Positions 1 to 4,505 of a DNA stretch of 4,505 nt are shown here, piece after piece; the stretch's first letter is position 1, and each line of letters opens with the position of its first letter. Origin of the DNA: a virus (Duplodnaviria; Heunggongvirae; Uroviricota; Caudoviricetes). A program made the translations under genes and the position numbers. The stretch lies in IMG/VR virus record IMGVR_UViG_2690316028_000006, positions 1-4,505 of that record. One strand, written 5' to 3'. The notes beneath the pieces are model-generated. The model made no database searches and was not told the origin of the DNA. It worked only from the letters and a program-made list of their open reading frames with translations.

Positions 1-593
1 AACTTCCGGCGAAGTCCATCTGGTGGCAGGGGGAGGAGTATAAAGCCTGGCCGTGTCAGATTGAGGGGATCGAGGCTTCAACCTCGGGAAGTAGTGCCCA
101 GCCAAAACTTTCGGTTGCTAACCTCGACAGTTCGATCACCGCGCTTTGCCTGGCTTACGACGATATGCTGCAGGCGAAGGTGACGATACATGACACCCTT
201 GGTAAGTATCTCGATGCGAGAAACTTCACCGGAGGCAATCCGACAGCCGATCCGACCCAGGAGAAGCTGAAGGTTTTCTACATCGATGCAAAGAGCAGTG
301 AAACCAATGAAGTTGTTGAGTTCACACTATCCAGCCCTATGGATCTGCAGGGGCTGATGATACCTACCCGCCAGCTTCATTCTCTGTGCACATGGTGCAT
401 CCGGAACAAGTACCGAACCGGCGACGGCTGCGACTATGCTGGTACGCGCTATTTCGACAAAAACAACAACCCGGTAAGCGATCCGTCGCTGGATGAATGC
501 AACGGCACGCTGACGGCCTGCAAACTCCGATTCGGCGAAGATAACGAACTCTCGTTTGGTGGCTTCCCGGGCACGTCTTTGATCAGGAGTTGA
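1..593 (+). CDS. L: Minor tail protein L (lambda gpL-like), 5'-partial; reading frame is open from position 3 to the TGA at 591-593
   Basis: Frame 3 has no stop from the window edge to 593. The translation (…SIWWQGEEYKAWPCQIEGIE…KLSVANLDSSITALCLAYDDMLQAK…CTWCIRNKYRTGDGCDYAG…DECNGTLTACKLRFG…NELSFGGFPGTSLIRS) matches the remembered architecture of lambda gpL, including the C-terminal cysteine cluster. The ORF-track entry 165..593 is only the part after an internal Met. Confidence 0.88.
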   Translation, partial: LPAKSIWWQGEEYKAWPCQIEGIEASTSGSSAQPKLSVANLDSSITALCLAYDDMLQAKVTIHDTLGKYLDARNFTGGNPTADPTQEKLKVFYIDAKSSETNEVVEFTLSSPMDLQGLMIPTRQLHSLCTWCIRNKYRTGDGCDYAGTRYFDKNNNPVSDPSLDECNGTLTACKLRFGEDNELSFGGFPGTSLIRS

Positions 594-594
594 T

Positions 595-1305
595 ATGCGT
601 CAGAAAACCATCGATGCGATTATGGCGCATGCTGCAGCTGAATATCCTCATGAGTGTTGCGGCGTGGTGGCGCAAAAGAGCCGGGTAGAGAAATATTTTC
701 CATGTAGTAACCTCGCTACCGAGCCGACAGAACATTTTCACCTGTCGCCAGAAGACTATGCCGCTGCTGAGGACTGGGGTACGGTGATCGCCATCGTTCA
801 CAGTCACCCTGACGCCACTACGCAGCCGAGCGAACTGGATAAAGCGCAATGCGACGCAACTCTTTTACCCTGGCATATTGTGAGCTGGCCGGAGGGGGAT
901 TTACGCACCATCCAGCCGCGCGGAGAACTGCCACTGCTGGAGCGTCCGTTTGTGCTTGGACACTTCGACTGCTGGGGGCTGGTAATGAGCTATTTCCGGC
1001 AAACGCATGGTATCGAGCTCCACGATTACCGGGTGGATTATCCCTGGTGGGAAAACGACTACCAGGACAATTTCTATCAGGAGTGCTGGTACGAGTGCGG
1101 ATTCAGGGAGTTTGATGGCCCGCCTCAGGAAGGGGACCTCATCATCATGCAGGTCCAGGCCGATAAGTGGAATCACGCGGGGATCCTGCTTGAGGGCAAT
1201 ATGCTACTGCATCATTTGTACGGTCATCTTAGCCAGCGCGTGCCATATGGTGGCTACTGGCAGGAAAGAACAATGAAAGTACTTCGGTACAAAGTATTTT
1301 GTTAA
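595..1305 (+). CDS. K: Tail assembly protein K (gpK-like), with an N-terminal MPN/JAMM metalloprotease-like domain and a C-terminal NlpC/P60-like domain
   Basis: 236-aa ORF starting 1 nt after the L stop, with CAGGAG 8 nt upstream of the ATG. Contains an exact JAMM motif HSHPDATTQPSELD (H-x-H-x7-S-xx-D, nt 799-840) and NlpC/P60-like Cys (FDCWG, nt 970-972) and His (NHAG, nt 1174-1176). Position after L fits lambdoid synteny. Confidence 0.9.
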   Translation: MRQKTIDAIMAHAAAEYPHECCGVVAQKSRVEKYFPCSNLATEPTEHFHLSPEDYAAAEDWGTVIAIVHSHPDATTQPSELDKAQCDATLLPWHIVSWPEGDLRTIQPRGELPLLERPFVLGHFDCWGLVMSYFRQTHGIELHDYRVDYPWWENDYQDNFYQECWYECGFREFDGPPQEGDLIIMQVQADKWNHAGILLEGNMLLHHLYGHLSQRVPYGGYWQERTMKVLRYKVFC

Positions 1306-1392
1306 TTCTATAGTGGTTAAGTTGTTAATTACTCACTCCATAACTTCATGTTAGTATTCCTCTGATATTTTCAATGAAAGGGAAGCTTAATT
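1306..1392 (+). promoter_or_regulatory. AT-rich leader of the lipoprotein cassette; probable moron promoter region plus Shine-Dalgarno (AAGGGAAG, about 1377-1384)
   Basis: Sharp drop in GC straight after the K stop codon. Several weak -35/-10-like hexamers are present (e.g. TTGTTA 1322-1327, TAGTAT 1352-1357, GATATT 1364-1369) but none forms a convincing pair with 16-18 bp spacing. Only the Shine-Dalgarno is reasonably clear. Confidence 0.3.
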
Positions 1393-1788
1393 GTGAAAAA
1401 AATATTGTTCTCTGGTCTTGTGGTGCTTGCCACCGCTGGATGTGCTGATAATAGGCCAATGCCGGTATTAGATACTAAGCCTGTCACATGTTCATCAGAG
1501 GCTGAATGTAGTTATCTTTGGTCGAAGGTTCCTCAGCATTTGGAGTTTGCAACAAAAATGAGAGTAGAATCAGCTAACGATACATTTATAACAACATTCC
1601 CACCTATTGATACAAGGCAACTTGCAGGACGGGCATCTAAGGTTAAACAGTCCGGCGATACGGCAATAAATGCTGAATTCCAATGCCATCGACATTATGG
1701 GCAGAAGGATTGTGAAAGGGCGGTAATTAATGCTACAAATTTCTTTAATCAAGCAATGAGCATTGAAAAGAAACATTTTAATAAATAA
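1393..1788 (+). CDS. Predicted lipoprotein, 131 aa, GTG start, function unknown (moron gene)
   Basis: N-terminus MKKILFSGLVVLATAGC has a basic n-region, a hydrophobic core and a lipobox-compatible ATAG|C with Ala at +2 (no Asp inner-membrane retention signal). The mature part has four Cys (C33, C39, C98, C107). Coding region is AT-rich relative to flanking tail genes, has its own Shine-Dalgarno and is followed by an intrinsic terminator. Confidence 0.75.
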   Translation: MKKILFSGLVVLATAGCADNRPMPVLDTKPVTCSSEAECSYLWSKVPQHLEFATKMRVESANDTFITTFPPIDTRQLAGRASKVKQSGDTAINAEFQCHRHYGQKDCERAVINATNFFNQAMSIEKKHFNK

Positions 1789-1812
1789 ACACCTAAATAA
1801 ATCAACCAAATT

Positions 1813-1834
1813 AAACCGCTTCGGCGGTTTTTTT
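1813..1834 (+). terminator. Rho-independent terminator of the lipoprotein cassette
   Basis: Perfect 7-bp stem AAACCGC/GCGGTTT with a TTCG tetraloop (1820-1823), followed by a T-run through 1834; located 25 nt after the lipoprotein stop codon. Confidence 0.75.
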
Positions 1835-1849
1835 ACGTGGGGGGATTAT

Positions 1850-2437
1850 ATGCAAGAGGTCATGAGTCGAATTGAATTAGGCAGTGTTCTTGGAAAAACG
1901 TTTGGCAAAGTTCACTACCGTCTGATATCCCGCGTAAGCGAAGCAGGCGTTGCACTCGCAAAAACCATTCCTGGATTTGAGCAGTTTATGATTTCCAGCC
2001 AACGCCGTGGGCTCACATACTCCGTGTTTAAGGGTAAAAAAAACATCGGTGTGGATGACCTTGGCTTCCCGATTACCGGCGAGGTTATTCGCATTGTTCC
2101 GGTAATCATCGGGAGTAAAAAAGCCGGTTTGATTCAAACTATCCTGGGCGCAGTATTAGTGATTGCATCGATCTGGATGCCAGGTCTGAGTATAGCTGCC
2201 AGCAATATGATGTTTGCTGCTGGTGCGTCCATAACGCTGGGGGGGGTAGTTCAGATGTTATCCCCTCAGGCTACAGGGCTGGCCAGCAAACAGAGCTCAG
2301 ATAACCGCGCCTCATACGCGTTCGGCGGGGTAACCAACACTGCAGCGCAAGGCTACCCAGTGCCTCTGCTTTATGGTAAGCGTCGAATCGGCGGAGCGAT
2401 TATTTCTGCCGGAATTTATGTCGAAGATCAACAGTAA
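1850..2437 (+). CDS. I: Tail assembly protein I (gpI-like)
   Basis: C-terminal region (…SITLGGVVQMLSPQATG…YPVPLLYGKRRIGGAIISAGIYVEDQQ) resembles the lambda gpI C-terminus as remembered (…GGVAQMLAPKA…VLPVLYGEMRVG…). Start chosen at ATG 1850 (a G6 run at 1839-1844 serves as Shine-Dalgarno, 5-nt spacer) rather than the track's 1763, which would overlap the lipoprotein gene and span the terminator. Confidence 0.8.
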   Translation: MQEVMSRIELGSVLGKTFGKVHYRLISRVSEAGVALAKTIPGFEQFMISSQRRGLTYSVFKGKKNIGVDDLGFPITGEVIRIVPVIIGSKKAGLIQTILGAVLVIASIWMPGLSIAASNMMFAAGASITLGGVVQMLSPQATGLASKQSSDNRASYAFGGVTNTAAQGYPVPLLYGKRRIGGAIISAGIYVEDQQ

Positions 2438-2474
2438 ATTAATTAACTTATTAGCTGATAGGCAGGAGAAAACT

Positions 2475-2792
2475 ATGACTTTAGAAGAGCGCATGAGCAT
2501 GCTTGAGGCAACCATCGCGAGCCTGCAGGTGGAGATAGCAGAGCTGCATAACCCGGCAATCGTCAATTCCGCCATTCAGAACGCACTACGGCCAGGTGGC
2601 GCTATTCATTCGATCATCACCGGTAATGGCTGGAGTTTGCGAGTAAAGGAGGGAAAGATTTCGCAGGGTGATGCAGGGGTTTTCGGTGGAACGGTAACAG
2701 CGGCCCAGAATGAGGCCGCTAAAACTCATGAAGAAATATTCAATGAAAAGCTCGATTTAATTATTTCTTTGATGCCACCTCTAAAACTTTAA
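2475..2792 (+). CDS. Hypothetical small protein, 105 aa, helical/coiled-coil-like N-terminus
   Basis: Strong Shine-Dalgarno AGGAG (2464-2468) with a 6-nt spacer to ATG 2475. Translation MTLEERMSMLEATIASLQVEIAELHNPAIVNSAIQNALRPGG…LMPPLKL. Start trimmed from the track's 2373, which begins inside gene I. No homolog recognised. Confidence 0.6.
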   Translation: MTLEERMSMLEATIASLQVEIAELHNPAIVNSAIQNALRPGGAIHSIITGNGWSLRVKEGKISQGDAGVFGGTVTAAQNEAAKTHEEIFNEKLDLIISLMPPLKL

Positions 2793-3021
2793 GGATGCGC
2801 GTGAACGCATCAATTGTGTGCGGATCATTACGTGCAGCTGATTCTGGGATTTTTGCTTGCCCTGCCTGATAGTTTTTAGTCAGAGCATCGAGTGCGCCTG
2901 GCCGGGCAATGTCCAGTAATTTCACAATGTCCGATAGAATCAGGCCAGTTGCAATTTCATGCGTAAGCAGCTTTTGTTTAAGCTCTGCCACTTCTTTTTC
3001 CAGTTCTAACATCGAACCCAT
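2761..3021 (-). CDS. Hypothetical small protein, 86 aa, convergent with and overlapping the 3' end of the 2475-2792 ORF
   Basis: Minus-strand ORF with a near-consensus Shine-Dalgarno (AAGGAG, 6-nt spacer, reverse complement of 3022-3040). Translation MGSMLELEKEVAELKQKLLTHEIATGLILSDIVKLLDIARPGALDAL…VASKK. No homolog recognised. Confidence 0.65.
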   Translation of the reverse strand: MGSMLELEKEVAELKQKLLTHEIATGLILSDIVKLLDIARPGALDALTKNYQAGQAKIPESAARNDPHTIDAFTRILKVLEVASKK

Positions 3022-3105
3022 TTACTTCTCCTTTTTCCAGAGGTAATCAGCCATTCCACCTGTTATGAGTTCACCAGCGTCCCACCGCTGGCGGGCTGAA
3101 TCCAC

Positions 3106-3132
3106 AACATAACCAGGTATTTAGATTTGTAA
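3106..3132 (-). promoter_or_regulatory. Candidate sigma70-like promoter for the minus-strand 86-aa ORF
   Basis: On the minus strand, TTACAA (complement of 3127-3132) and TATGTT (complement of 3106-3111) are separated by 15 nt. The match is weak and the spacing suboptimal. Confidence 0.2.
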
Positions 3133-3152
3133 CATCCTGATATTCAGACAGT

Positions 3153-3176
3153 AGCCACCTTTGGGTGGCTTTTTTA
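3153..3176 (+). terminator. Rho-independent terminator on the + strand, immediately upstream of the J start
   Basis: 7-bp stem AGCCACC/GGTGGCT with loop TTTG, followed by TTTTTT (3170-3175). The U-tract is on the + strand only; the minus-strand flank is not T-rich. Confidence 0.6.
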
Positions 3177-3186
3177 TGGGCGCAAT

Positions 3187-4505
3187 ATGGCTACAGATAA
3201 AGTGTTAAAAGGCCGCAAGGGCGGCAGCTCAAGTTCCCGAACCCCTACCGAACAGCCTGATGATCTGCAATCTGTAGCGAAGGCAAAAATCCTCGTTGCG
3301 CTTGGGGAAGGGGAGTTTGCTGGACAGCTCACCGGCAAAGATATCTACCTGGACGGAACAGCGCTGGAGAATGCTGACGGCTCCCAAAACTTCAGCGGGG
3401 TAACGTGGGAGTTTCGCGCGGGAACGCAGGCGCAAAAATATATTCAGGGTATTCCCGGTACCGAAAACGAGATCAGCGTAGGAACTGAGGTATCAAGTGC
3501 CACAGCCTGGACGCGCACGTTTACCAATACGCAGCTTTCAGCAGTTCGCCTGCGTCTTAAATGGCCCTCGCTTTTCAAACAGGAAGACGACGGCGATCTG
3601 GTGGGTTACTCGGTCAATTATGCGATTGACCTGCAGACTGACGGCGGCACATGGCAGACGGTACTCAATACCAGCGTGACCGGCAAAACGACGTCTGGTT
3701 ATGAGCGCAGCCACCGTATCGATTTACCGCAGGCTGGCAGCACATGGACAATACGTCTGCGTAAGATTACCTCTGACGCCAACAGCGCGAAGATCGGCGA
3801 CACGATGATGCTGCAGAGCTTCACCGAGGTGATTGACGCCAAACTGCGCTACCCGAACACCGCGCTGCTCTACGTCGAATTCGACTCAAGCCAGTTCAAC
3901 GGCTCTATTCCTCAAATTTCATGCGAACCGCGCGGCCGCGTTATCCGCGTTCCAGATACCTACGACCCTGAAACCCGCACTTATAGCGGTACATGGACCG
4001 GTGCGTTTAAGTGGGCATGGACGGATAACCCTGCGTGGATTTTTTACGACCTGGTTGTTTCTGACCGGTTCGGCCTTGGGCACCGTTTGACCGCTGCGAA
4101 TATTGATAAATGGACGCTTTATCAGGTTGCTCAGTATTGTGATCAGATGGTACCAGACGGCAAAGGGGGCAACGGTACAGAACCACGCTATACCTGCAAC
4201 GTGTACATTCAGGACCGGAACGACGCCTACACAGTCCTGCGTGATTTTGCCGCTATCTTCCGTGGCATGACCTACTGGGGCGGGGATCAGATTGTGGCCC
4301 TGGCTGACATGCCGCGCGATGTTGATTACAGCTATACGCGCGCTAACGTTGTTGGCGGTCGCTTCACCTATTCGAGCAGCACCACGAAAATCCGCTACAC
4401 CACAGCGCTGGTTTCATGGTCAGACCCGGGTAACGCTTATGCCGACGCGATGGAGCCGGTATTTGAGCAGGCGCTGGTGGCGCGGTACGGCTTCAATCAG
4501 CTGGA
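3187..4505 (+). CDS. J: Host specificity / tail tip protein J (gpJ-like), 3'-partial; runs off the window end
   Basis: Frame is open from ATG 3187 to the window end (about 439 codons). The translation (MATDKVLKGRKGGSSSSRTP…NTALLYVEFDSSQFNG…RGRVIRVPDTYDPETRTYSGTWTGAF…NPAWIFYDLVVSDRFGLG…DKWTLYQVAQYCDQMVPDG…) parallels the remembered lambda gpJ N-terminal region (…YPNTALVGVQVDSEQFG…RGRILQVPSNYNPQTRQYSGIWDGTF…DKWALYVIGQYCDQSVPDG…). Absent from the ORF track only because it has no stop in the window. Confidence 0.9.
   Translation, partial: MATDKVLKGRKGGSSSSRTPTEQPDDLQSVAKAKILVALGEGEFAGQLTGKDIYLDGTALENADGSQNFSGVTWEFRAGTQAQKYIQGIPGTENEISVGTEVSSATAWTRTFTNTQLSAVRLRLKWPSLFKQEDDGDLVGYSVNYAIDLQTDGGTWQTVLNTSVTGKTTSGYERSHRIDLPQAGSTWTIRLRKITSDANSAKIGDTMMLQSFTEVIDAKLRYPNTALLYVEFDSSQFNGSIPQISCEPRGRVIRVPDTYDPETRTYSGTWTGAFKWAWTDNPAWIFYDLVVSDRFGLGHRLTAANIDKWTLYQVAQYCDQMVPDGKGGNGTEPRYTCNVYIQDRNDAYTVLRDFAAIFRGMTYWGGDQIVALADMPRDVDYSYTRANVVGGRFTYSSSTTKIRYTTALVSWSDPGNAYADAMEPVFEQALVARYGFNQL

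Follow-up and report, generated by a model that had tools for sequence, protein, structure and literature searches.

The tail genes K and I are neighbours in bacteriophage λ, and the prophage locus described here raises the question of what an extra stretch of DNA between them is, and what the protein that it encodes might do. The DNA that we analysed, referred to throughout as the window, is a stretch of 4505 bp corresponding to positions 1–4505 of the IMG/VR record IMGVR_UViG_2690316028_000006. Open reading frame (ORF) calls, together with comparisons to Pfam and PHROGs, indicated that its gene content is the lambdoid tail-tip block of an HK97/HK022-like prophage (Table 1). The closest sequenced phages are HK022, HK97, HK140, mEp235 and mEpX2, in which the flanking tail genes are 91–97% identical to those of the window; these phages nevertheless cover just 62–66% of the window, because the cargo between the genes differs. 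K ends at position 1305 and I starts at position 1850, so that positions 1306–1849, which the initial annotation had singled out as an insert, are the exact K–I interval (544 bp). It had also held that K and I are adjacent in λ, and the two genes do overlap or abut both there and in phage mEp237. A search of Rfam returned no RNA families in the window at E ≤ 1.

Table 1 Features of the tail-tip block in the 4505-bp window.
Feature	Position	Strand	Match or property
L, C-terminal part	165–593		PF05100
K, tail tip, JAB/MPN and NlpC/P60 domains	595–1305	+	PF14464, PF00877, phrog_30
AT-rich leader	1306–1392	+	GC 0.30
ORF131, 131-aa prolipoprotein	1393–1788	+	phrog_16082, E = 7.8e-9
Intrinsic terminator	1813–1837	+	7-bp stem, UUCG loop, U7 tail
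I, tail assembly	1850–2437	+	phrog_32, E = 6e-72
gp22-like gene (HK97 gp22)	2475–2792	+	phrog_22477
gp23-like 'reverse moron' gene	2761–3021	−	phrog_23209
J, N-terminal 439 codons	starts 3187		FNIII-A_GpJ; phrog_31, phrog_2589

The K–I interval stands apart from its surroundings in base composition. Its GC content is 0.38 and the GC3 of the one gene that it carries, here called ORF131, is 0.30; the corresponding GC and GC3 values are 0.53 and 0.60 for K, 0.50 and 0.49 for I, and 0.55 and 0.62 for J. Within the AT-rich leader, a Shine-Dalgarno-like sequence, AAGGGAAG, occupies positions 1378–1385, 10 nt ahead of the GTG with which ORF131 begins, a spacing that is slightly long and usable. The ATG at position 1374 was considered as an alternative start and rejected, as it is out of frame and opens a frame of only 24 codons. 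We note that an antisense ORF of 79 aa (1570–1809) lies opposite ORF131, a gene under purifying selection. Downstream of the coding sequence, the stem-loop AAACCGC-TTCG-GCGGTTT (1813–1830) is followed by a run of seven T residues and folds with a z-score of −2.5; this is the UUCG-loop terminator initially proposed for this position. The same stem-loop is found unchanged in the copy of this cassette in Enterobacter (positions 5421–5438 of locus L034). Separately, a terminator-like hairpin with nine pairs and a loop of seven nucleotides lies at 2388–2412, within the 3′ end of I; the T-run after it is weak, and the hairpin probably reflects chance.

A strict scan for σ70 promoters over positions 1200–3250 gave no matches. 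The leader does contain a weak candidate promoter, the extended −10-like sequence TGTTAGTAT at 1349–1357, and an alternative candidate, GGTACA-17-TATAGT, lies at 1286–1314. When the leaders of homologues are aligned, TGTTAGTAT falls opposite the tool-called promoter TTGCCT-16-TATGAT, which has a TG in front, of the Enterobacter homologue, and opposite TAGATT of the Citrobacter homologue. This alignment is suggestive only, and TGTTAGTAT is the best of the candidate promoters of ORF131. Extra DNA between genes that are otherwise adjacent, a deviating base composition and a terminator of its own are marks of a moron, a phenomenon reportedly described in 2000. As defined for HK97 and HK022, a moron also has a promoter of its own that is active in the repressed prophage, and for this the leader offers the weak candidate just described.

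Comparison with related phages indicates that the K–I junction is an established site for such insertions. In both HK022 and HK97 a gene called gp20 sits between K and I, and the HK022 copy is named 'moron gene product' in its GenBank record. Its product spans the membrane once and is YebO-like, as judged from a 47.7-bit match to PF13974 and from the name assigned by PGAP, and the gene too is closed by a similar hairpin. The view that the insert splits a K–I gene pair thus holds relative to λ but not relative to HK022 and HK97, in which the junction was originally annotated as a moron site. Given the gp20 moron at the same place, the position of ORF131 is expected and not surprising.

Other relatives carry other cargo in this slot. 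In HK140 it is occupied by a 113-aa lipoprotein gene, HK140_019 (MKKTLLTLSLIIMAGC...; 1535–1876 of locus L027), which starts 29 bp after K. In Escherichia coli VREC0864 (1571–2582 of locus L030) it holds a KilA-N gene together with a gene for a 137-aa lipoprotein (MKRILVFTSILMVAGC...). Both of these lipoproteins have canonical lipoboxes, they are unrelated to one another, and neither belongs to a Pfam family. We considered them as distant relatives of ORF131 and rejected this, as the similarity is limited to the signal peptide. The slot is empty in λ and in mEp237, whose flanks are 81% identical to those of the window. Thus, the K–I junction has accommodated no fewer than four unrelated cargos directed to the envelope, of which one is a YebO-like membrane protein and three are lipoproteins.

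The edges of the slot suggest how this diversity may have arisen. On the left, the break occurs inside the final ~10 codons of K, and an alignment of K 3′ ends reveals that these codons differ by cargo type. On the right, HK140 has nearly the same terminator as the window (at ~1885–1920 of L027) even though its cargo gene is unrelated, and the G-rich ribosome-binding site of I (GGGGGG), directly 3′ of the terminator, is alike in the two. This pattern suggests that cargos are exchanged through recombination at the two edges, namely the end of K and a shared junction made up of the terminator and the I ribosome-binding site. It also qualifies the notion of a self-contained unit. The insert does come with its own terminator, as that description requires, but nearly the same terminator closes the unrelated HK140 cargo. 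The further proposal of a horizontally acquired accessory gene is borne out by the contrast in GC and GC3 and by relatives that carry other cargo or none. Relatives whose flanking tail genes are 91–97% identical lack ORF131 and have other cargo in its place, and from these comparisons ORF131 is, as far as can be read from sequence, dispensable for the tail.

A second moron slot is present in the window between I and J (2438–3186). There the gp22-like and gp23-like genes are convergent, with 3′ ends that overlap by 32 bp, and a terminator lies ahead of J at 3153–3170. In other prophages that carry an identical ORF131, the I–J slot holds a reverse ORF of 71 aa or 210 aa or a forward ORF of 88 aa, or is empty.

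ORF131 has the features of a prolipoprotein, as the initial annotation had claimed from its GTG start and its 131-aa reading frame. The N-terminus, MKKILFSGLVVLATAG followed by Cys17, matches both the PROSITE entry PS51257, through the stretch SGLVVLATAGC, and the G+LPP lipoprotein pattern. It comprises an N-region charged through Lys2 and Lys3, a hydrophobic core with a mean Kyte-Doolittle value of 2.2, and the lipobox LATAG, after which Cys17 would become the first residue of the mature protein. The signal peptide is 16 aa long and the mature part 115 aa, with a pI of 8.3. Residue +2 is Ala, and beyond the lipid-anchoring Cys17 the mature part contains four further cysteines (Cys33, Cys39, Cys98 and Cys107), both as first described. 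Sorting of lipoproteins by the Lol pathway follows an avoidance rule in which Asp at +2 retains a lipoprotein and otherwise it goes on to the outer membrane. Since ORF131 has Ala and not Asp at +2, the Lol pathway should deliver it to the outer membrane, with a putative location on the periplasmic side. An AlphaFold2 model built with the family alignment is a confident one (pLDDT 92.1, pTM 0.81) and predicts an α/β protein in which a flexible linker extending to about residue 28 precedes a domain of order β-α-β-β-β-β-α. As the protein would be exported, its four invariant cysteines beyond Cys17 probably pair in two disulfides.

The sequence is also carried and conserved as a gene. Of 5426 complete E. 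coli genomes, two carry it, at 99.8% DNA identity, and in both of them the same ORF is annotated by RefSeq. The exact protein is present in ~300 blocks of the assembly collection, and the order K–ORF131–I was found in all eight of the displayed places (24 contigs read). Comparison with the Enterobacter copy gives a dN/dS of 0.14, and both copies begin with GTG. Purifying selection, membership in a family, conserved cysteines and a confident model together establish that ORF131 is a real gene. In one E. coli prophage (L012, 10397–12700), a reverse-strand insertion sequence (IS) with an rve-family transposase stands in place of I, which is not called there, and the ORF131 upstream of it is intact and identical. 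This prophage is probably tail-defective with its lipoprotein gene preserved.

The only library match of ORF131 is to phrog_16082, a PHROG to which no function is attached, over residues 1–118. No match was obtained in Pfam (E ≤ 0.1) or NCBIfam, and none of the defence models of PADLOC-DB matched at E ≤ 1. When 51 family members were compared with Pfam, stray PDZ and FliN matches appeared, in single members only. Searches of PDB chain sequences with 6- and 51-sequence profiles gave matches at the level of the signal peptide only, and Foldseek returned nothing from the BFVD viral structures at E ≤ 1e-3. An exhaustive profile search recovered 67 cluster representatives (E ≤ 1e-3), almost all with lengths of 110–180 aa. 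Seven positions do not vary in the 51-sequence alignment: C17, C33, C39, W43, T68, C98 and C107. Of 84 family members, 70 have a strict lipobox, with Ala at +2 in 50 of these 70 and Asp in none; among the remaining 14, several are N-terminally truncated and others fall narrowly outside the pattern. We note that in a protein of 4104 aa (P0008) the segment C-x5-C-x3-W (profile positions 29–63) is matched eight times (E = 1e-17); this may be a repeat protein with the same Cys motif, or an artefact.

These data bear on whether the product of ORF131 is a structural or assembly protein of the tail, or else a non-functional ORF that has merely hitch-hiked with the tail genes. The location of ORF131 inside the tail-tip block is what such readings have in their favour. 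Yet closely related tail modules lack the gene, no tail family in Pfam or PHROGs matches it, and its signal for export as a lipoprotein is incompatible with tail assembly in the cytoplasm, which a protein leaving by this route could not easily join. The initial annotation had itself named clear homology to a tail structural component as evidence against its interpretation, and neither Pfam nor PHROGs revealed any. A non-functional ORF is likewise hard to reconcile with a dN/dS of 0.14, with residues that are invariant over ~70 representatives and with a model of pLDDT 92. We therefore regard both of these readings as very remote, and take ORF131 not to be a component of the virion or of its assembly.

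Members of the family are found in a variety of settings. The K–I slot itself is held by homologues in Enterobacter hormaechei (84% identity) and Citrobacter (63%). In a short metagenomic contig, a homologue with 34% identity (P0009) has a tape-measure-like gene on one side and gpM on the other, and another with 37% identity (P0007) comes directly after the tape-measure gene of an apparently truncated prophage. A more distant homologue (P0025, 28%) is encoded, together with a co-oriented gene for an Mrr-like nuclease (Mrr_cat), in a reverse-strand insert in a siphophage tail module of Burkholderiales (L025, 6001–6937), just upstream of a probable tape-measure gene of 1150 aa; this insert may be a small defence-type island within a tail operon. 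At the edge of a Serratia prophage remnant, the homologue P0081 follows a tail-fibre fragment, and that of phage vB_EcoS-689R5 (30% identity) lies in a nin-like region. Three members (P0006, P0076 and P0080) are chromosomal and have no phage genes nearby, one of them being beside integrase fragments and genes for a type VI secretion system (T6SS) and the other two downstream of a two-component system. Surroundings were read for 11 distinct homologues, and 6 of these are located within siphophage tail clusters or immediately next to them. Such a distribution is that expected of a mobile accessory gene. The family probably originated in cells and was then captured repeatedly by siphophage tail operons; with several chromosomal, non-phage members, its ancestral role may be unrelated to phages. 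As a separate observation, the E. hormaechei homologue is encoded on CP143743.1 (L034), a sequence of 45,670 bp; this may be a whole replicon of its own, perhaps a phage-plasmid or a phage that has excised.

The distribution speaks to the idea that ORF131 is a helper of the lytic cycle, made from the late tail transcript, that acts as a periplasmic partner or inhibitor of the NlpC/P60 domain of K or guards progeny against loss on cell debris. Such a role would suit a gene that is co-oriented with the late operon, that directly follows the NlpC/P60-bearing K and for which the σ70 scan found no strong promoter; moreover, the HK140 cargo, starting 29 bp after K, has little space for a promoter of its own. 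Homologues are, however, found in slots away from K, in a nin-like region and outside phages, and an intrinsic terminator combined with an AT-rich leader suits an independent unit. On balance, we consider a lytic-cycle helper to be very unlikely.

Another possibility is that ORF131 is a factor of host fitness or lysogenic conversion in the manner of Bor or Lom, one that benefits the lysogen, for example through resistance to serum or stress, through adhesion or through homeostasis of the outer membrane. Several observations point in this direction: the moron architecture and a slot of the same kind as those of other conversion genes, the members that lie after a two-component system or by a T6SS island, the intact ORF131 in the prophage in which an IS takes the place of I, and the finding that the fold closest to the ORF131 model is that of a domain from BamC, an outer-membrane lipoprotein with a housekeeping role. 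The N-terminal helix-grip domain of BamC and other small helix-grip lipoproteins (Flpp3/DUF3568) are among the closest known systems. Another known system is λ Bor (PF06291), which like ORF131 is an outer-membrane lipoprotein encoded by a moron of a lambdoid prophage; unlike ORF131 in its K–I slot, bor adjoins the lysis genes. That Bor does not resemble ORF131 in sequence had been noted initially, and we find the same: there is no match to the Lambda_Bor family of Pfam, and hhalign aligns the two over residues 1–21, the signal peptide, only. Against a fitness role stand this lack of homology to Bor or to annotated virulence or fitness families, the rarity of the gene (two carriers among the 5426 complete E. 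coli genomes) and the location of more than half of the homologues with read surroundings in or beside siphophage tail clusters. Although we rank a Bor-like fitness role second among the explanations for ORF131, it appears rather unlikely.

Phage exclusion proteins provide the other set of precedents. HK97 gp15, the founding moron, is expressed from the prophage and is proven to act in superinfection exclusion, and it belongs to the same family as gp20 (PMC3594210). The gp20 and ORF131 cassettes are laid out alike in the K–I slot, each with a leader, a small envelope-targeted protein and a hairpin terminator followed by the start of I. The cargos differ, gp20 and gp15 being single-pass inner-membrane proteins of ~70 aa whereas ORF131, a lipoprotein of 131 aa, has a folded domain of 100 residues, and the sequences of gp20 and ORF131 are unrelated. 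A second precedent is set by Llp, which acts on FhuA, and Rtp45, which acts on LptD, both of which are periplasm-facing disulfide lipoproteins that block phages (PMC9586334, PMC12685063). Lipoproteins of the Cor/Llp/Rtp45 type bind the periplasmic face of the receptor used by their own phage (PMC9586334, PMC12685063). Cor (of φ80, HK022 and T1), Llp (of T5) and Rtp45 resemble ORF131 in being small phage lipoproteins that are encoded near tail or receptor-binding genes and that have outer-membrane sorting signals and cysteines which form disulfides, as those of ORF131 probably do.

The initial annotation had raised the possibility, by functional analogy to Cor and Llp, that ORF131 masks a receptor. 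If so, ORF131 would bind the periplasmic face of the receptor recognized by J and lock it in a state that J cannot bind, a mechanism that is documented for Llp with FhuA and for Rtp45 with LptD and that would suit a small lipoprotein of outer-membrane type with conserved cysteines encoded in a tail-tip cluster. The comparisons to Cor, Llp and Bor exclude homology past the signal peptide. In particular, the Cor and Llp PHROGs do not match ORF131; hhalign of the family profile with HK022 Cor is confined to residues 1–32, which are the signal peptide and a short stretch beyond it (P-x-C); and the PDB chain search, made in a version of the PDB expected to contain Llp and Rtp45, gave nothing above signal-peptide noise. 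The mature domain of ORF131 is about twice the size of Cor (the Cor precursor has 77 aa and its mature domain ~60 aa), and its predicted fold differs from those of Cor, Llp and Rtp45.

A further argument comes from J. Identical copies of ORF131 occur with at least three different C-terminal receptor-binding domains of J, which appear unrelated: only ~49–59 residues can be aligned between the C-terminal domains, while the N-terminal 900 aa are 91–94% identical. That one ORF131 accompanies several J ends indicates that ORF131 is linked to the conserved core of the tail tip (K and I) and not to receptor specificity, which makes it less likely that the phage's own receptor is what ORF131 masks. 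We accordingly consider a Cor/Llp-type mechanism directed at J's receptor to be improbable. What the J data leave are receptor-independent exclusion, as for gp15, exclusion by way of receptors that other phages use, or host fitness.

Taken together, these findings lead us to the following explanation. Positions 1306–1849 constitute a horizontally acquired AT-rich moron in a known slot, the K–I junction of HK97/HK022-type tail operons, and we are confident that its product is an accessory envelope lipoprotein. ORF131 would be expressed from the prophage, the prolipoprotein would be exported by Sec, lipidated and cleaved at Cys17, and the Lol pathway would then move it to the outer membrane, where its 115-residue α/β domain (β-α-β4-α, probably with two disulfides) would face the periplasm. 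There it may alter the envelope of the lysogen or of the infected cell, and our best guess is that it most likely hinders other phages or protects progeny. We would expect its target to be something that many hosts and phages share, and not the specific receptor of J. By analogy with the known moron and lipoprotein systems, an exclusion or envelope role is plausible, and an envelope-modifying lipoprotein, most likely acting in exclusion, ranks first among the explanations considered. The whole of this explanation, a K–I moron whose outer-membrane lipoprotein changes the envelope and most likely hinders phages, falls a little short of an even chance in our judgement, and phage exclusion as the function of ORF131, taken by itself, is a tentative proposal that we hold less firmly still.

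A more specific version of the exclusion hypothesis, and one that we think unlikely, is that the ORF131 family represents a new class of receptor-independent exclusion lipoproteins of siphophage tail operons. A disulfide-braced, helix-grip-like domain would in that case intercept a conserved part of the incoming tail tip as it crosses the envelope, candidate targets being the tape-measure protein and the NlpC/P60 peptidase of the K type. Such a mechanism would differ from those of Cor, Llp and Rtp45 in that no outer-membrane receptor would be masked. It fits the recurrent insertion of family members beside tape-measure and tip genes, the independence of ORF131 from the J end and the precedent of gp15.

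The architecture, position and class of cargo of the ORF131 cassette are textbook for HK97-like phages and already known. What is new is modest: a family of lipoproteins with four conserved cysteines (phrog_16082), which is predicted to fold well and recurs in tail operons, and a K–I junction that, from the sequences compared, appears to cycle unrelated envelope proteins behind a shared terminator. If the preferred role in exclusion or envelope remodelling is true, ORF131 and its relatives would make up a new and structurally distinct family of phage lipoproteins on the periplasmic side of the outer membrane, beside Cor, Llp and Rtp45. The K–I junction of HK97-like tails, as a swap site, is a handy place to mine for envelope-acting prophage genes.
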